This document shows, in pieces, positions 1 through 5,695 of a stretch of DNA of 64,000 nucleotides. The notes under the pieces were generated by a model. That model searched no databases and was not told the DNA's origin. It saw nothing but the letters and a program-made list of their open reading frames with translations. Source of the DNA: a virus; the IMG/VR virus record IMGVR_UViG_3300023174_000082, positions 52,951 to 116,950 of that record; one strand, 5' to 3'. Made by a program: the position numbers and the translations under genes. Each line of letters opens with the position of its first letter. Positions within the stretch are counted from its first letter, which is position 1.

Positions 1-207
1 CATTTGGCCCATGTCTCGAAACTCCATGATGATCATCCATTCAGGCATGTCTGCAATTGAACGAAATCCCATCTTGCATCGTGTGATACGATAGTCTACC
101 ATCTTGTCTTCAGAGATCAAATGATCAAAAAAACTTTTCATTCCGTTGACCCAGTCAAGGTCTGAGATGTCGCCTTCTTTGTCTGCCCAAATTGTGTATA
201 AATCCAT
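1..207 (-). CDS. Hypothetical protein, DUF6614-like (runs off the left edge)
   Basis: Not in the ORF track. Read manually from ATG at 207: MDLYTIWADKEGDISDLDWVNGMKSFFDHLISEDKMVDYRITRCKMGFRSIADMPEWMIIMEFRDMGQM, open to position 1. Starts 2 nt after the stop of 210..644. DUF6614 resemblance is from memory. Confidence 0.7.
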   Translation of the reverse strand, partial: MDLYTIWADKEGDISDLDWVNGMKSFFDHLISEDKMVDYRITRCKMGFRSIADMPEWMIIMEFRDMGQM

Positions 208-209
208 AG

Positions 210-644
210 TTACTCCAGTGGTCCTAGTATTTCAAATCCCGCCATGCTGGATTTGTATAAGTGTGCTTGCTCAAGATACAGGTATTGGAACCCTCGAGCC
301 TTGTAGATAGCACACTCTGCTTTCATTGTTTCAATTCCTAATCTCAACTTAGGATTGTTGTAGTTCCATGCAAATTGATCGCACAGTGCGTTATGATCAT
401 CATAGCGTTTGATTAACGAGAATGCAACCAATCGGTCATGGTCGTAGTACCCAATCACATCAGTCATTGGATCTGTATATCTGCTGTCAAATATGGGCAT
501 TACACTTGCAAAATGTTTGTATTTGCAATAGTCTCTATAGATAGAGTTTAGCTGTTTGATATCAGGGTTAAACAAGTACTCCCACTTTACACTTGGTGTA
601 TAGTTGGTTTGGCTAAGATCAATTCGTGCAAACTGATAGCTCAT
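210..644 (-). CDS. Stand-alone ATE_C-like (arginyl/leucyl-tRNA-protein transferase, GNAT fold) protein
   Basis: Motifs IYRDYCKYKH, GYYDHDRLVAFSLI and RLGIETMKAECAIYKARGFQYLYL..YK..FEIL parallel the C-terminal domain of ATE1/Bpt. ATGA overlap with the upstream gene. Confidence 0.6.
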   Translation of the reverse strand: MSYQFARIDLSQTNYTPSVKWEYLFNPDIKQLNSIYRDYCKYKHFASVMPIFDSRYTDPMTDVIGYYDHDRLVAFSLIKRYDDHNALCDQFAWNYNNPKLRLGIETMKAECAIYKARGFQYLYLEQAHLYKSSMAGFEILGPLE

Positions 645-1141
645 CGTGGATCCCGGCGATGTTGGAACAATCCAGTAAGATATTCTTCTGGCCAGTTGTG
701 ATAGAATCCCTTCTCAGCCATTGTTCGGGCCTTGGCATCAAGATCGCTGAGACTCTGCACCAACGCCAGTGCATATGTTCCTTGGTTCATACACACGCCG
801 TTGATCATTTCTACATCTGAGGGATGGTCTTCTAGTGCAAGAAGATCCTTGCGTAGTAAAAATTCTTTGTTGGCAATCTTCAAACTGTCACTGAACAATT
901 CATATGGCCATTCTACTGGATTGTATGCATAGATTACAACTTCCCATTTGCCCATACCCCAGTGTGCTTGATTTTTTAAATCAAAATAAGGATGCACACC
1001 CACTCGCACATCGTAGCTTTTTTTCATTCTTGCTGAGCGTGCGTATGGGCAAGGAGCCCAGCCTCCTAAAGCAGGATGTGGAACTTCCACAAAGTTCACA
1101 ATCCAGTTTTCAATATCTTGAGTAACTGTTTCTATATCCAT
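641..1141 (-). CDS. DUF1415-like protein
   Basis: N-terminal W..FVE.P..L.....CPYA motif and an LEDHP motif. TAATG overlap with the upstream frame. Confidence 0.55.
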   Translation of the reverse strand: MDIETVTQDIENWIVNFVEVPHPALGGWAPCPYARSARMKKSYDVRVGVHPYFDLKNQAHWGMGKWEVVIYAYNPVEWPYELFSDSLKIANKEFLLRKDLLALEDHPSDVEMINGVCMNQGTYALALVQSLSDLDAKARTMAEKGFYHNWPEEYLTGLFQHRRDPR

Positions 1142-1371
1142 TAGAAATACGGCAATTTTGTTTTGTTGGTCGTTTCCATGTTTTCTTCAGCAATCTTGCT
1201 AATCATTTTTCTTTCAGTGAAACTTAGTGCCAGCACCTGATCGTAGGTGAGTCCGCCGCGCATCAACCAAGCCAATCTTAAACTGTTTGATCTAATTGCG
1301 TTGGCCTCCTGATCAAGGCTGTCAATGTACTCGCCAATTTCCTCTACTGGGAGGATCAGGAGGCGGCTTCG
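1141..1371 (-). CDS. -1 frame extension of the tail assembly chaperone (gp51-like second part); alternatively a 40-aa ORF from ATG 1263
   Basis: Open frame RSRLLILPVEEIGEYIDSLDQEANAIRSNSLRLAWLMRGGLTYDQVLALSFTERKMISKIAEENMETTNKTKLPYF* starts at slippery T TTT TTC (1377-1371). It fills the gap, and its TAA overlaps the next ATG. Confidence 0.65.
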   Translation of the reverse strand, partial: RSRLLILPVEEIGEYIDSLDQEANAIRSNSLRLAWLMRGGLTYDQVLALSFTERKMISKIAEENMETTNKTKLPYF

Positions 1372-2201
1372 AAAAAATTTGTAAGATCCAGATTCAGTGC
1401 TTGATCATGTTCGTGATTGCATTCACTGCAGGTGAGATGCACAGGTTTGAGTTCTGTACGATTGCGCAATTCAACTGCGTGATCTCTAACAGCAACAAAA
1501 ATTTGACGATCGCAGTTTTGCAAAAATTCATCAATGTGCTCGGACTCTGACACAACAGACTGTGGTGTACGAATTGCTGAAATTGAGTACTTGAGAGCTC
1601 GCATGGTCAGCTGAGTCAACGTTTTCATCACTTCGGCTAGTTTTTGTAACTTGTCGTCTTCACTGAGTTCAGTATCCATGCTAATGTTGCGCATCATGCG
1701 TTGATTTTCAAATTGCTCAAGATTGATTTCGTTTTGTTTTTCATAACTCATTGGATGAAAATAAATTTCCAAATCTCCATAAGTCACTGTGGCAGAAAAG
1801 TCAGGCATGGTCAACTGATCCAGTGCATTGCGCAAGTCTAACGCAAAACTCTCAATGTGTTTGCAAGCAGGACAAGTGGTTTCAATTTCAAGCTCGTGAC
1901 CGTAGCTGGCAATACGAATAGCAACCAGGATAGAGTTTAAATCTGCCACAGGAGCATGCCAGGCATTTTTAATTGACGGCACACAACTGTGTATCACATT
2001 GACCACAGCTTGCCCGCTAAACAGTGCATCTGGCGTGCGATAGGTAATTTCGTCAATGGCTGTCATGGGATAAACAGGCAGCTCACCGTTTTGAGGCACG
2101 TCTAAGCTGCCTTCTGGCCAGTATTTGCCCTCGCTGGGCAACCGCAAGTAAATTGCTGGTTGTCTAAAAAATTGTCTAAGTGGATTGTGATTTTGGTTCA
2201 T
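1356..2201 (-). CDS. T4 gp26-like baseplate hub / tail assembly chaperone
   Basis: NPLRQFFRQP, LPS.G, PMTAIDE, RIASYG, two CxxC pairs (CPAC, CSEC) and a C-terminal NFF. Divergent from the tape measure gene. Confidence 0.75.
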   Translation of the reverse strand: MNQNHNPLRQFFRQPAIYLRLPSEGKYWPEGSLDVPQNGELPVYPMTAIDEITYRTPDALFSGQAVVNVIHSCVPSIKNAWHAPVADLNSILVAIRIASYGHELEIETTCPACKHIESFALDLRNALDQLTMPDFSATVTYGDLEIYFHPMSYEKQNEINLEQFENQRMMRNISMDTELSEDDKLQKLAEVMKTLTQLTMRALKYSISAIRTPQSVVSESEHIDEFLQNCDRQIFVAVRDHAVELRNRTELKPVHLTCSECNHEHDQALNLDLTNFFEAAS

Positions 2202-2210
2202 AGTGTACCC

Positions 2211-2231
2211 ATAAATATACTTCTACTTATA
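2211..2231. promoter_or_regulatory. Overlapping divergent late-promoter-like boxes
   Basis: ATAAATA at 2211-2217 (+, toward tape measure) and TATAAGTA at 2231-2224 (-, toward the gp26-like gene). Both resemble the T4 late TATAAATA box. Confidence 0.55.
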
Positions 2232-2242
2232 GGTGTTTTTCA

Positions 2243-5200
2243 ATGGCGGACGTAAATCAAGCATCACAAGAAATGGCTGAAGTCATAGCACAAGTGTCTG
2301 ACGACCTTAGACGTTTTGGGCGAGTTACCGAAGATACTCAAGCAGCACTGGCAGCTGGCAGTTTTCGCCGAGCAAAAGAACTTGACAAAGCCAGTGCGTT
2401 AACAGCAGGTGCGTTAGGAAATCTGGCAGGTGCAGGTCTAGCAGCCGGCAAAGCCATGTATGATGGCCAAAAAGGCGCCGCGGCATTTAACAGTTCACTT
2501 GACAGCATGAGCAAAGCAGTTACCGCAGCCGGTGCTGCGTTGACTTTCTTGGTTCCTGGCGGATTTTTAATCAAAGCTCTAATTGGCCTGGGCACAGCCG
2601 CAGTTGGCGCCAGTATTAAGATGACTCAAGCGGCCAACGACATGGCCGACAATTTGTTCTCAGCCAATAGCAAAATGGCCAAATCTGGCCTGGCAGCATC
2701 AGATGGCATGACTGGCATATTCCGCGACGCCAAGAAGCTTGGCCTGAGCATGAAAGAGTTGGGTGTATACACCAATGCAGTAGCAGCCAACAGCGCAGAA
2801 TTGGCCTTGTTCAAGGGCACAGCATTTGAAGGACGTAAAGCATTTGCTGACATTGGTGCGTCAATGAAGCCATTCCGCGCCAGCTTGGAAGGCGCAGGTA
2901 TCAGTCTTGAAGATCAAATTGCAGGCACTGCTGGCTATTTGAGATTGCAAACTCAAATAGGACAAAGTCAAAACAAAAGCACAACAGAACTAGCCAATGG
3001 TGCTAGAAAATATCTAGTTGAAATGGATGGACTCAGCAAGCTCACAGGCATGCAACGTGAGGAGATGGAAAAACAAATGGAAGCTGCTAGAAGCGAGCAG
3101 CGTTTCCGGGCCAAACTAGATGCCATGCGAGCATCTGGAGATGCCCGACAAATTGCTGCTGCTGATAAGATGGAAAGAGCCAACATTCTTATCAGCAAAC
3201 AAGCACCAGAGTTAGGACAAGCATTTAGAGATGCCAGTTCAGGTGTGCTCACAAGTGATGCAGCAGTTAAAGGGCTGATTGGCACACAAGGCAAGCTGTT
3301 ACAAGTGACTGATCAATTGGCAAATGGTCAAATTGACGAGTATCAAACGTTCAAACAGTTGGGTCAGGCTGCTGGACAGTTTGGTAAAGACATGAACTTT
3401 ACAGCTCAGCTGGGCTTGCTGAATGATTTCAGCATTGATTATGCGCAGGCAATGAAAATTGGTATTGCCACAACAAAAGACACTTCTGAACTGGCTGCGT
3501 TAATTGCAGAAGAACAAAAGAAACAAATGGGCTCGCAGAATGACGCCAACACCAAGGCCATGGCTGATCTCAGAGAAAAACAACGCAATCTCAATGAGAT
3601 GCTGGAAACTACAATAGCTAACCAGATGGGCACAGCTATATCAATGAGCAACGCTCTAGCCAATGCCACAACACCTATTGCCACGGCATTTGACAGACTT
3701 GCACCATTGATGGAAAAATTCATAATCCAAATGACAAAACTCACCGACTTCTTGGCAGAAAAACTGGGATATATTGTTAACAAGAGTATTGATGTAGTAG
3801 AAGCCACACAAAAAGACGGCATGGGCGGATTTTACAGATCTGGTGGCAGTGAATTAGTTGGGTCTGGTGTTGGTGCAGTAGCTGGTGGAGTAAAAGGCGC
3901 AGCCATGGGTGCGGCTCTAGGTAGTGTGGTGCCAGTGCTTGGCACAGCTATTGGTGCCGCCCTGGGCGGATTGGTTGGTGGTGTGGGTGGTTATTATGGG
4001 GGCAAGGTATTGGGTATGGGCGCTGATGCACTAGGTACCGCAGTAACTCCTCCTGGGCGTGCCGCCGGTGGTCCTGTCAGCAGACGAAATCCCTATATTG
4101 TGGGCGAGCGTGGCCCAGAACTCATGGTTCCTGAACAAGCAGGAAAAATTATCAACAATGACAAACTAAGCAAGATGTTTGAGTCCATGGCTTCTTCTGT
4201 ATCTTCAGGACAAGTTAGTGTTGATATGATATCTCAAGTGATGGGCAGCTCTGTAACTGTTGTAACCACAACCAATAGCGAACTGACTGACAATTTAAAA
4301 ACTACACAAAACGTTGGCAACACATATCAAGCAATACTGAAATCTGTTGACGAGCTAAATGACAAAACCAAAAAAACAACAGAGTCTGCAATTACAGCTC
4401 AACGAGAAACTCTAACAGACATACAACGCATTGAACGTTACACTGATCAAGACATGAAACGCACAAAAGAGTTTGTGGATTTTCATAAAAAATATCTTGA
4501 CAGTATCACCCAGATATTGGGTGAAAACTTAGAGCTATTGCAAGAACAATCAGAACAAAGTGGTTCTGCTGGTGCAGGCGGCGCTCCAGGCATGGGCGGA
4601 GGTACAGGACTGAAAATTCCAGCAGCGCCACCAGCCGGAGGCATGGGCGGAGGTACAGGGGTTAGGGCTGGCGGCGGCCAAGGCGTACAAGTTAAAAATC
4701 AAAACGATTTGTTGTCCATGGGTCTTAAATTTGATCCCAAACGTGATGTACAAGCAGAAGGTGCGGCAATCAGTCCCAAGTTAATTGAGCTGGCCAAGAA
4801 CGTTCAAAGTCTCATACCAGGATTTTCAGCATTCACAGGAATGAATGATCAGTACCACAACGAAAAGCATCCACGAAGCTTGCACGCCAAAGGTCAAGCC
4901 ATGGACTTTGTGCTAAACAAAAAGCCCACAAAAGAAGAAGGTGAAAGCATTGTTAGTTGGCTCAAACAGTCAGGAGCCAGTCTTGCCTTAGATGAATACA
5001 ACAACGCTAATCAGCACACAACAGGCGGCCACTTCCATGCAGAAATTCCTGCATTTGGCGACGGAGGCATGGTAGACAAAGCCACACTGGCGTTGATTGG
5101 TGAAAAAGGTCCAGAAGCTGTGATTCCCATGGACGGCAAAGAAATTCCACTGAATATATCCAAGCCAATTCCAATCAAGCTGGATCTCAAAGATGTATTT

Positions 5201-5695
5201 GCCGAAGGAGGCATTGGCCCAACATTTGGCGGCATGAACGAATACACTGGTTACAACATGGGCCACATGTCAACTGATTTGAGTGCAGTGAAAGAAATTG
5301 CTGCCAGCATGGGCGCCTTTGACAAAGCATCACAAACCATCACAGATCCAGCAACCTGGAAAGAAATTATAAATTCAGGCATTGCTATGAATTACGATCT
5401 TGGCATGGCCAAAATTGGTACTCAAATGGGAGACGGTATAGGACAAGAAATGGCACAACGTCTGAATGACATTGTGGCTGAAAATGGTGTGAGTCAAAAG
5501 GAAGCATTTGATATCATGCGAACAGAGTTTGTAGAAGCCATGAAAACAATCACAACAGAAATGTTCCAGAAAATGGCCAAAGAATCAGCCACACCAGAAA
5601 CAGATGCGCTGATTGCTGGCATTGATGCGCTAATTGCCAAGCAGAGTGAAGCCAACGACATCAGCAAGAAGATACTCCAGGTGAGTGCAAACTAA
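2243..5695 (+). CDS. Tape measure protein with glycine zipper and M15-like Zn-peptidase domain
   Basis: 1150 aa, Ala-rich and helical. Contains RAAGGPV..YIVGERGPEL and FGDGG..ALIGEKGPEAVIP tape-measure motifs, and SLHAKGQAMDF...GHFHAE (HxxxxxxD/HxH). Confidence 0.8.
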   Translation: MADVNQASQEMAEVIAQVSDDLRRFGRVTEDTQAALAAGSFRRAKELDKASALTAGALGNLAGAGLAAGKAMYDGQKGAAAFNSSLDSMSKAVTAAGAALTFLVPGGFLIKALIGLGTAAVGASIKMTQAANDMADNLFSANSKMAKSGLAASDGMTGIFRDAKKLGLSMKELGVYTNAVAANSAELALFKGTAFEGRKAFADIGASMKPFRASLEGAGISLEDQIAGTAGYLRLQTQIGQSQNKSTTELANGARKYLVEMDGLSKLTGMQREEMEKQMEAARSEQRFRAKLDAMRASGDARQIAAADKMERANILISKQAPELGQAFRDASSGVLTSDAAVKGLIGTQGKLLQVTDQLANGQIDEYQTFKQLGQAAGQFGKDMNFTAQLGLLNDFSIDYAQAMKIGIATTKDTSELAALIAEEQKKQMGSQNDANTKAMADLREKQRNLNEMLETTIANQMGTAISMSNALANATTPIATAFDRLAPLMEKFIIQMTKLTDFLAEKLGYIVNKSIDVVEATQKDGMGGFYRSGGSELVGSGVGAVAGGVKGAAMGAALGSVVPVLGTAIGAALGGLVGGVGGYYGGKVLGMGADALGTAVTPPGRAAGGPVSRRNPYIVGERGPELMVPEQAGKIINNDKLSKMFESMASSVSSGQVSVDMISQVMGSSVTVVTTTNSELTDNLKTTQNVGNTYQAILKSVDELNDKTKKTTESAITAQRETLTDIQRIERYTDQDMKRTKEFVDFHKKYLDSITQILGENLELLQEQSEQSGSAGAGGAPGMGGGTGLKIPAAPPAGGMGGGTGVRAGGGQGVQVKNQNDLLSMGLKFDPKRDVQAEGAAISPKLIELAKNVQSLIPGFSAFTGMNDQYHNEKHPRSLHAKGQAMDFVLNKKPTKEEGESIVSWLKQSGASLALDEYNNANQHTTGGHFHAEIPAFGDGGMVDKATLALIGEKGPEAVIPMDGKEIPLNISKPIPIKLDLKDVFAEGGIGPTFGGMNEYTGYNMGHMSTDLSAVKEIAASMGAFDKASQTITDPATWKEIINSGIAMNYDLGMAKIGTQMGDGIGQEMAQRLNDIVAENGVSQKEAFDIMRTEFVEAMKTITTEMFQKMAKESATPETDALIAGIDALIAKQSEANDISKKILQVSAN

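Follow-up and report, generated by a model that had tools for sequence, protein, structure and literature searches.

A truncated ATE_C/Bpt-like GNAT protein in a phage gene cassette and its possible role in amide formation on small amines

The window, i.e. the whole 64-kb stretch of jumbo-phage DNA analysed here, carries near its start a chain of minus-strand genes that runs from a T4_baseplate hub gene through a -1-frame open reading frame (ORF) to a 166-aa gene, a 144-aa gene and a DUF6614 gene, and the cassette lies in a tail and baseplate operon. The first gene in the chain (1356..2201, minus strand) encodes a 281-aa baseplate-hub/T4_baseplate protein (Pfam PF12322, E 5.4e-15; PHROG phrog_150 'baseplate hub', E 4e-18). 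Upstream of it, the best-matching sigma-70-like promoter candidate (TTGAAA-18-TATATT, 10/12; 2214..2243, minus strand; 12194-12165 in the numbering of locus L002), a consensus match only, may mark where the transcription unit begins, and the T4 late-promoter motif TATAAATA was not found in L002. An 87-codon stop-to-stop frame (1141..1404, minus strand), which shares the last 49 nt of the hub gene and is read in the -1 frame with respect to it, corresponds to what the original prediction called the tail chaperone frame. It has a conserved C-terminal peptide (...MRGGLTY...ETT.KT.LPYF) and is a separate 73-aa ORF in distant relatives; in the window it may be entered by frameshifting from the hub gene.

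This frame ends in a TAATG (1139-1143, minus strand) that also contains the ATG of the 166-aa gene (641..1141, minus strand; a DUF1415/DUF6875-like protein and the constant partner of the 144-aa gene). In the same way, an ATGA at 641-644 of this strand holds both the stop of the 166-aa gene and the ATG of the 144-aa gene (210..644, minus strand; a truncated ATE_C/Bpt-like GNAT), and a 2-nt gap (bases 208-209) separates the 144-aa gene from the next ATG at 207, which belongs to the DUF6614 gene (1..207, minus strand; the first 69 of 111 codons, the gene running 129 nt past the window start). All three junctions are in the sequence as first described, and from this spacing the 166-aa, 144-aa and DUF6614 genes of the phage cassette appear to be translationally coupled. 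The chain is longer than three genes and extends beyond the window into a gene for a 179-aa PNP_UDP_1 nucleosidase of the MTA/SAH type and then into a 350-aa gene; by coordinates, 4-nt overlaps are present between the DUF6614 and nucleosidase genes and between the nucleosidase and 350-aa genes. A PDB sequence search with the 350-aa protein gave nothing useful (best E 0.31). No tRNA genes were found in the 64-kb window, and radical SAM genes are present near the cassette in the window's contig and in locus L087.

The whole 111-aa product of the third gene is a DUF6614 protein (PF20319; E 1.4e-20, 73.8 bits against a cut-off of 25), and the 69-aa part inside the window alone gave 40.3 bits; the label DUF6614-like given to it at the outset is hence borne out. 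PDB sequences gave nothing useful for DUF6614. Among cellular genomes the family was found in 6 of 301 Pseudomonadota genomes, flanked by unrelated ORFs in all six loci, and the cassette profiles had no match in these loci.

For the 144-aa protein the sole Pfam match at E<=1 was ATE_C (PF04377), with 16.3 bits and E 0.015, under the curated cut-off of 25. Fourteen of 24 family members matched ATE_C at E<=0.01, with no other Pfam family matched, and a 139-aa relative reached 33.1 bits, over the cut-off of 25; the ATE_C feature is present at the level of the family and not by the curated cut-off for the single sequence. Moreover, hhalign aligned the profile of the 144-aa family with 11 true Bpt proteins (93% probability, E 3.5e-7, 108 columns) with YK placed on YK, and the best five PDB sequence matches of the family profile were all ATE1. 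The single 144-aa sequence gave nothing useful against PDB sequences (best E 1.6), and NCBIfam had no match for the 144-aa, 166-aa and DUF6614 proteins. The Pfam family, hhalign and PDB matches agree with the proposed homology to the ATE_C/Bpt GNAT domain and, as judged from these comparisons, the 144-aa protein is a genuine though truncated member of this lineage. The motifs from which the homology was originally proposed all exist, but some of the spacings were wrong: after Y36 and Y39, the step from Y39 to H44 is five residues instead of four, LVAFS corresponds to residues 72-76, LG (102-103) and C111 are separated by seven residues, not six, and YLYL (121-124) and YK (130-131) by five, not three.

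Tyr130 is present in 24/24 rows of the family alignment and Lys131 in 22/24, aligned to the invariant YK of Bpt. By alignment they correspond to Y303 and K304 of KlAte1, which according to the available text of PMC9351520 are both essential, the Y303F and K304A variants being inactive. Glu110 (21/24 rows) is the counterpart of KlAte1 E277 in the Arg pocket and Trp93 (23/24 rows) that of W260; that is, the Glu is missing in three of the 24 relatives and the Lys in two. With respect to the side-chain pocket, KlAte1 S273 corresponds to T106 (S/T in 20/24), while the variable position C88 is aligned with S255, and L122 with Y289. These KlAte1/Bpt equivalences were derived here from the PDB-match alignment combined with the available text of PMC9351520. 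Since true Bpt carry Q, E or T at the Glu110 position (alignment A5), Glu110 alone does not name the amino acid.

Neither the 144-aa protein of the window nor 10 relatives matched ATE_N. The protein begins at the strand that follows ATE_N in long forms (alignment A3), and the hhalign match of the family is restricted to Bpt columns 116-238, so the predicted lack of ATE_N is confirmed both by Pfam and by hhalign coverage. Also absent from the short family is the basic alpha-3 tRNA-binding helix, which binds the 3' part of the tRNA: in alignment A3 the short family lacks 8-10 residues at the place of the K/R-rich segments of P0213, P0214 and P0216, and the predicted structure of the 144-aa protein has a beta hairpin in place of the helix. 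The median pI is 5.7 (acidic) for the short family versus 8.3 for true Bpt. Because the basic helix is deleted and the proteins are acidic, tRNA use by the short family is uncertain.

The 166-aa protein has invariant residues that include Cys31-Pro32, Asp105-His106-Pro107, Glu111 and Arg162 (alignment A2). It had been described as DUF1415-like, and the automatic names of its Atlas neighbour clusters, a lead only, do include DUF1415 (17%) next to DUF6875 (23%), but Pfam gave no match to DUF1415 (PF07209) and only a sub-threshold one to DUF6875 (PF21780; 17.2 bits, under the cut-off of 24.5, residues 8-47 only). DUF6875 was matched by 13 of 20 relatives of the 166-aa protein at E<=0.05 (best 0.0011), and a search for DUF1415 in the open-access literature found nothing relevant. 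The AF2 model of the protein has a pLDDT of 94.3. With this model as query, Foldseek retrieved no PDB structure at E<=0.001, only weak rows for IF3-C/Alba, methyltransferase and AglA, and by this comparison the protein has no solved structural relative. The suggestion that a partner completes the missing ATE_N fails for the 166-aa protein, which as a split-off ATE_N was rejected by profile comparison (hhalign probability 0.3% versus Bpt and 0.2% versus long phage forms). A complex prediction for the 144-aa and 166-aa proteins, run without controls, scored 0.00 against a mark of 0.32 and speaks neither for nor against binding.

Relatives of the 144-aa ORF at E<=0.001 comprise 2915 clusters at 90% identity, with no name beyond 'hypothetical protein' among 120 matches listed; the protein had no match in 50,697 GenBank phage records. 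In neighbourhood counts drawn from a collected set of 162 loci, 78 of the 80 close loci had the 166-aa gene and 77 of them had DUF6614, and in the loci with distinct 144-aa sequences (n=99) the corresponding numbers were 95 and 88. Given the 2915 relatives and the recurring gene order in the close loci, the 144-aa ORF is more than a chance ORF, and the three genes do recur together, also in phages where the genes around them are different, which is the synteny that the original prediction proposed to look for. Two loci (L090/L091) have the 144-aa gene without the 166-aa and DUF6614 genes, and in two others (L167 and L169) 166-aa-like genes are located beside full-length Bpt-like forms. Longer phage relatives (225-270 aa) aligned with Bpt over 185 columns, N-terminal part included. 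P0128 and P0181 as locus queries returned no viral loci. In the open-access literature we found no description of phage ATE_C-like genes or of the 166-aa/144-aa/DUF6614 cassette, and nothing relevant for phage arginyltransferase/Bpt or for ATE_C in phage.

An additional gene, for a 323-409-aa AGAT-family amidinotransferase, is inserted between the cassette genes in 22 of the 99 loci. Its profile (alignment A6) matched AGAT (1.5e-22), SxtG (3.8e-20), HsvA (5.8e-19) and StrB1 (4.9e-14); all 12 rows have H220, D222, H355 and C356, and the conserved Cys (GGxHC), His and Asp are presumably the catalytic residues. In one lineage the cassette has a 230-aa protein, possibly ATP-grasp-like (an Atlas lead only), and the profile of this family gave nothing useful against PDB sequences. 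The amidinotransferase in the relatives' block points to a small modified amine rather than to tagging for destruction. This small-molecule reading rests on the relatives, because the window's contig (34% complete by CheckV) has no amidinotransferase, AdoMet decarboxylase (speD) or spermidine synthase (speE); ClpS was likewise not found on it. The MTA/SAH-type nucleosidase in the window's operon was counted in favour of the small-molecule lean. Our preferred reading, which we put forward as tentative, is that the cassette is an amide-forming guanidino small-molecule or amine-modification system and not one for N-degron tagging.

According to the original prediction, the GNAT would instead move Arg or Leu from tRNA to the N-terminal Asp/Glu of host or phage proteins, with the 166-aa and DUF6614 proteins replacing ATE_N and with ClpS/ClpAP degrading the tagged proteins. 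By every test the closest sequence relatives are indeed the protein-modifying ATE1/Bpt, the catalytic dyad Tyr-Lys is retained together with the Glu of the pocket, the constant 166-aa partner could provide an acceptor lobe, and some jumbo phages encode ClpS (available text of PMC7824862). However, the acidic-N-terminus pocket of KlAte1 is located in ATE_N (as far as described in the available text of PMC9351520), i.e. in the part that is absent here, and profile comparison linked the 166-aa protein neither with ATE_N nor with the N-terminal region of the long forms. Nor does the GNAT have the basic tRNA helix, ClpS is not on the window's contig, and such tagging has no role for the amidinotransferase inside the cassette. 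We consider tagging of this kind unlikely; taken as a whole, the original interpretation is partly supported.

In several other phages the 144-aa/166-aa pair adjoins nrdA/nrdB, MazG and glutaredoxin genes. This location, and the radical SAM genes mentioned above, would fit a Mom-like GNAT that uses aminoacyl-tRNA to acylate a phage DNA base or a nucleotide precursor, with the partners, among them the amidinotransferase of the relatives, maturing a hypermodified base that blocks host nucleases. There is a phage GNAT precedent, in which glycine from Gly-tRNA is placed onto adenine in dsDNA (available text of PMC13219725), and phage Mu Mom is alike in being a phage GNAT that uses the amino acid of a charged tRNA outside the ribosome, as far as the available description goes, the donor in our case being a proposed one. 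In contrast, Mom belongs to a different GNAT branch without sequence relation to the 144-aa protein, for which ATE_C is the sole Pfam match, and it works without partners, with a cleft that is positively charged, whereas the cassette proteins are acidic and, by pI, include no positively charged DNA-binding candidate. Moreover, Foldseek listed no PDB or BFVD match that is described as Mom, and the cassette of the window belongs to a tail and baseplate operon. We consider base or nucleotide modification improbable.

The Foldseek search with the model of the 144-aa protein was led by tRNA-dependent GNATs, namely MprF/aa-PG synthases, ATE1 and Sba18/Sbb17, and the best matches include 6lv0 (E 3.9e-6), 4v35, 5vrv and 9wqy. 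The structural comparison suggested with the original prediction accordingly had a mixed outcome, in its favour as regards the top matches, but the acetyl-CoA GNAT VipF and Eis-type acetyl-CoA GNATs were interleaved with ATE1 and scored equally well. An acyl-CoA-dependent N-acyltransferase, or a non-catalytic GNAT scaffold that serves structure or regulation, perhaps when the tail or baseplate is assembled, would agree with this interleaving, with the lost helix and acidity of the family and with the location of the cassette directly after the baseplate hub gene in the window and most close relatives, yet the Tyr-Lys (22-24 of 24) and pocket Glu (21 of 24) that are typical of tRNA-dependent transferases are conserved, none of the 24 members matched an acetyltransferase Pfam family at E<=0.01 and the pair is also found away from tail genes, and we regard such a role as having little probability.

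Returning to the preferred reading of an amide-forming, amine-modifying cassette, the 144-aa gene would encode the catalytic core, a GNAT domain, of an aminoacyl transferase of the Bpt/ATE_C type, from which three parts have disappeared: the ATE_N lobe that binds the acceptor, the basic tRNA-binding helix and the C-terminal extension. The protein would act within a coupled cassette together with the 166-aa protein, DUF6614 and, in approximately one fifth of the related loci, an L-arginine-dependent amidinotransferase. What can be read from the sequences, namely homology, truncation, conservation of the catalytic residues and linkage of the genes, is the firm part of this proposal. As to the donor, acceptor and product of the GNAT reaction, we infer that an amide bond would be made from an activated amino acid, most likely aminoacyl-tRNA, and that the cassette would build or decorate a small cationic amine (polyamine-like, or a guanidino compound derived from an amino acid) or else an amine carried by a larger molecule. 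The logic has precedents in amidinotransferase-plus-amide-ligase pathways (phevamine), where HsvA and amide ligases make amidinospermidine conjugates (available text of PMC6187163), and in the tRNA-dependent amide synthases Sba18/Sbb17 and PacB.

The window protein shares with Bpt and ATE1 a homologous GNAT (ATE_C) core in which the Tyr-Lys dyad, the Trp and the aminoacyl-pocket Glu are aligned. It differs from them in size (144 aa versus approximately 240 for Bpt or 500 for ATE1), in having no ATE_N lobe, Cys cluster, basic alpha-3 helix or C-terminal extension, in a loop before YK that is six residues shorter, in being acidic and in being encoded in a phage cassette with unrelated partners. 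The tRNA-dependent GNAT amide synthases (MprF/aa-PG synthases, FemX, Sba18/Sbb17 and PacB) are the best structural matches and resemble the proposed system in their single-amine acceptor logic, and they have an equivalent of the catalytic Lys (available text of PMC9351520). Unlike the single-lobed 144-aa protein, with which they have no detectable sequence similarity, they have tandem GNAT lobes and a basic tRNA-binding helix; a basic helix for the tRNA 3' end is used by ATE1, FemX and the PG synthases and is deleted in the short family. The hsv (phevamine) pathway is similar in that the relatives' cassette has an HsvA/AGAT-family amidinotransferase, an amide former and possibly an ATP-grasp-like protein; it differs in that the amide former here is a Bpt-like GNAT and not an ATP-grasp protein, that the window has no amidinotransferase and that the carrier is a phage, not a plant pathogen.

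To our knowledge, all aminoacyl-tRNA transferases known from the ATE1/Bpt line have two lobes and modify proteins in N-degron pathways, and in the present data a one-lobe version is common among uncultured phages. If active, the 144-aa protein would define the minimal catalytic unit of this line and would represent a new way for phages to draw on charged tRNA. The recurring amidinotransferase turns this into a concrete, testable chemical hypothesis and provides candidate enzymes for guanidino-amide compounds. It is conceivable, if rather doubtful, that an abundant but unannotated group of jumbo and T4-like phages carries a tRNA-dependent cassette in which a minimal GNAT derived from Bpt, a DUF1415/DUF6875-like partner with a new fold, DUF6614 and, in many cases, an arginine-dependent amidinotransferase make an aminoacylated, amidinated polyamine-like compound, or such an adduct on DNA. 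Finally, if the wider reading of the cassette is true, it would constitute a viral pathway that feeds charged tRNA into secondary metabolism.

The IMG/VR virus record comprises 116,950 bases, of which the window covers bases 52951-116950, and is 34% complete according to CheckV. Its portal protein is nearest to those of jumbo myoviruses (Sinorhizobium phage Phosso, 58% identity; Agrobacterium phage Atu_ph07, 48.5%; Pseudomonas phage PA5oct, 48.2%), and contigs with close relatives of the 144-aa gene reach up to 364 kb. On the minus strand, the 281-aa T4_baseplate (hub) gene (1356-2201; PF12322, E 5.4e-15) is followed by an 87-codon frame (1141-1404), which lies in -1 relative to the hub gene and overlaps its last 49 nt, and by the genes for the 166-aa protein (641-1141), the 144-aa GNAT protein (210-644) and a third protein with only its start inside the window (1-207). 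With the upstream DNA of the same contig (L002) the third gene encodes 111 aa and is a genuine DUF6614 family member (73.8 bits). Two more 4-nt overlaps extend the chain from the DUF6614 gene to a 179-aa PNP_UDP_1 MTA/SAH-type nucleosidase (L002 9287-9826, minus strand; NCBIfam matches all under cut-off) and on to a 350-aa protein with neither family nor PDB match (L002 8238-9290, minus strand); among 80 close loci these two genes are present in 23 and five, respectively. The best promoter-like site immediately precedes the hub gene, while the 350-aa gene is immediately followed by the best terminator-like hairpin, so that, judged from these patterns only, one transcription unit from the hub gene through the 350-aa gene is plausible.

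The -1 frame ends in a conserved peptide, W.MRGGLTY...ETT.KT.LPYF, and its overlap with the hub gene holds the A/T-rich run AAATTTTTTCG (coding strand, about 1370-1380). Corresponding stretches are L084 3208-3498, L167 1932-2153 and L169 4563-4784. Since in distant relatives the same peptide forms a 73-aa ORF that stands alone and has a separate start, the version in the window may be made by frameshifting, internal start, or both. A 1150-aa tape-measure-like protein (2243-5695, plus strand) contains …HPRSLHAKGQAMDF… and then …GGHFHAE…, a stretch resembling an LAS/M15-type metallopeptidase motif, which would suggest a cell-wall hydrolase domain within the tape measure. A pair of neighbouring radical SAM genes, of which one has a SPASM domain, and after them a SegE-type GIY-YIG homing endonuclease gene are located 2.1-4.5 kb before the window start (L002 5452-7307 and 7342-7770, plus strand); a radical SAM gene is also present upstream of the cassette in the related locus L087. 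Further ORFs upstream of the operon (L002 2686-5459 and 939-1835, plus strand) resemble by eye an Mre11/Rad50 pair (337 and 587 aa), and a 298-aa ORF in this region has no Pfam match.

Across the 80 close loci the 166-aa gene was present in 78, the DUF6614 gene in 77 and the hub gene in 73; the corresponding numbers for 82 loci retrieved with two divergent queries were 78, 74 and 67, and of 99 loci that each have a different 144-aa sequence, 95 contain the 166-aa gene and 88 the DUF6614 gene. These counts are lower bounds because loci cut by contig ends were included. Both the linkage and the junctions in the window (TAATG, ATGA and a 2-nt gap) agree with the original prediction, the latter exactly. 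The 166-aa and GNAT genes are also found together in another genomic setting: the gene order in L083 is nrdB, 166-aa-like gene, GNAT gene, 343-aa gene, MazG, glutaredoxin and PhoH, and L086-L089 have a similar setting, while in L167 and L169 the 166-aa-like genes adjoin full-length Bpt-like forms. L090 and L091 depart from this pattern, with a 221-aa protein as the only gene product encoded after the GNAT; no 166-aa homologue was found in the 28-kb record behind L090. In L166, a 2.5-kb contig in a MAG, a full-length Bpt-like gene of phage type is flanked by DUF6614 and amidinotransferase genes on the opposite strand, and phage contigs are probably among the members of the MAG bins to which L166, L167 and L169 belong.

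In many relatives 1.1-kb "insertions" amid the cassette genes encode a 323-409-aa protein, the profile of which matches L-arginine:glycine amidinotransferase (E 1.5e-22), SxtG, HsvA and StrB1, with invariant His, Asp and GGxHC Cys columns. Of the 99 loci, 22 carry this gene, placed before or after the GNAT gene or in both positions; L156 is an example of the last, with two diverged paralogues (2775-4004 and 4444-5415), one on each side. No such gene was found in the searched part of the window's contig. A 230-aa protein also intervenes in the nrdB-linked lineage, and its sole lead is ATP-grasp-like Atlas neighbours (score 0.91, few shared features).

The 144-aa protein has 2915 relatives at E≤0.001 (90%-identity clusters); among the matches listed (120) identity is 82-90% and source names, where given, are only "hypothetical protein". 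No match was detected in 50,697 GenBank phage records, and 1.84 billion representatives, searched exhaustively, yielded 133 matches, the weaker of which are 183-268-aa proteins similar in their C-terminal part. Ten longer matches (183-260 aa) were scanned: nine match ATE_C at E≤0.01, with six of these exceeding the cut-off (49.2 bits at best), whereas ATE_N is matched by none. Taken alone, the window protein matches Pfam ATE_C at E 0.015 (16.3 bits, under the cut-off of 25) and no PDB sequence; 14 of 24 aligned short-family members match ATE_C and no other family, one 139-aa member with 33.1 bits, and the five best PDB sequences for the family profile are ATE1 chains (E 0.026-0.085). For comparison, 11 true Bpt genes were drawn from genomes of Pseudomonadota and Bacteroidia; against these the short family aligned with 93% probability (E 3.5e-7, 108 columns) and the longer phage family with 98.2% (E 2.8e-14, 185 columns, extending into the N-terminal part). 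The homology to ATE/Bpt originally predicted is borne out at the family level; the motifs quoted in its favour are present, but three of the spacings given differ from the actual ones, each by one residue or two.

AF2 gives a confident model of the 144-aa protein (pLDDT 94.2), for which the best PDB fold matches are tRNA-dependent GNATs (MprF/aa-PG synthases, KlAte1, ScATE1, human ATE1 and Sba18/Sbb17), interleaved at similar E-values (4e-6 to 1e-4) with VipF and other acetyltransferases; in BFVD a single close match was found, to an uncharacterised protein from a phage not in culture (56% identity). Residues were mapped by residue-by-residue PDB alignment and the KlAte1 structure paper (PMC9351520), the PDB chain numbering being the paper's plus 4 (S255, W260, S273, E277 and Y289 all fit). 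According to that paper, Glu277 and Ser273 belong to the Arg pocket, E277A/K being nearly or fully inactive, Trp260 is a conserved aromatic near the active site with suggested tRNA-Arg binding, and Y303F and K304A are inactive, the Lys being equivalent to FemX K305. The window protein has Glu110 for Glu277 (kept in 21/24 short rows and 18/18 rows of a mixed short/long alignment), Thr106 for Ser273 (S/T in 20/24), Trp93 for Trp260 (23/24) and, from the alignment with true Bpt, Tyr130-Lys131 for Tyr303-Lys304 (24/24 and 22/24). Since true Bpt vary at the position of Glu110 (Q, E or T), this residue is not sufficient to identify the amino acid transferred.

Compared with KlAte1, the window protein lacks the whole ATE_N lobe, which forms the acidic-N-terminus pocket and bears the Cys4 site (PMC9351520). 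The short forms also lack the C-terminal extension that the long forms retain as GFEWWTG.EWS, and the basic alpha-3 helix, to which the 3' end of the tRNA binds. In place of this helix the alignment shows an 8-10-residue gap and the model a beta hairpin. The short forms are acidic, with a median pI of 5.7 in contrast to 8.3 for true Bpt. The 166-aa protein is unrelated to ATE_N. Its Cys31-Pro32, Asp105-His106-Pro107, Glu111, Asn119, Gln129 and Arg162 are strongly conserved, its model is confident (pLDDT 94.3) but resembles no PDB fold at E≤0.001, Pfam gives only a weak DUF6875 match, and its Atlas neighbour clusters are auto-named DUF1415 (a lead only). Cellular DUF6614 was found in six of 301 genomes searched, each time alone amid housekeeping genes.

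Both the homology and the retention of catalytic residues speak in favour of an active enzyme that transfers acyl or aminoacyl groups. The donor would most likely be aminoacyl-tRNA since all detectable relatives use one, although the loss of the basic helix and the acidity of the protein make this uncertain. As a pathway we tentatively favour, at somewhat less than even odds, small-molecule or amine decoration, because an arginine-dependent amidinotransferase, which would make guanidino groups on amines, recurs in the cassettes. It co-occurs with an amide-forming enzyme and, in one lineage, a possible ATP-grasp protein, and the nucleosidase in the window's own operon counts in the same direction. 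Transfer to DNA or a nucleotide is improbable yet a live rival, since phage Mu Mom is a phage GNAT using Gly-tRNA on DNA (PMC13219725). An equally small chance is given to a non-tRNA or non-catalytic role. The N-degron tagging originally predicted is no likelier and gains no support from the anatomy: an acidic protein N-terminus is an unlikely acceptor, as the pocket is gone and the partner is no replacement by homology. The remaining odds are not assigned to any reading.

No publication on the phage cassette was found in the open-access literature. The 144-aa protein represents a new, truncated form within an enzyme type already known, and the phage cassette to which it belongs is likewise new, and abundant. 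For amine or small-molecule decoration the closest logic would be that of the hsv pathway, in which HsvA amidinates spermidine and ligases then attach Val and Phe (PMC6187163).
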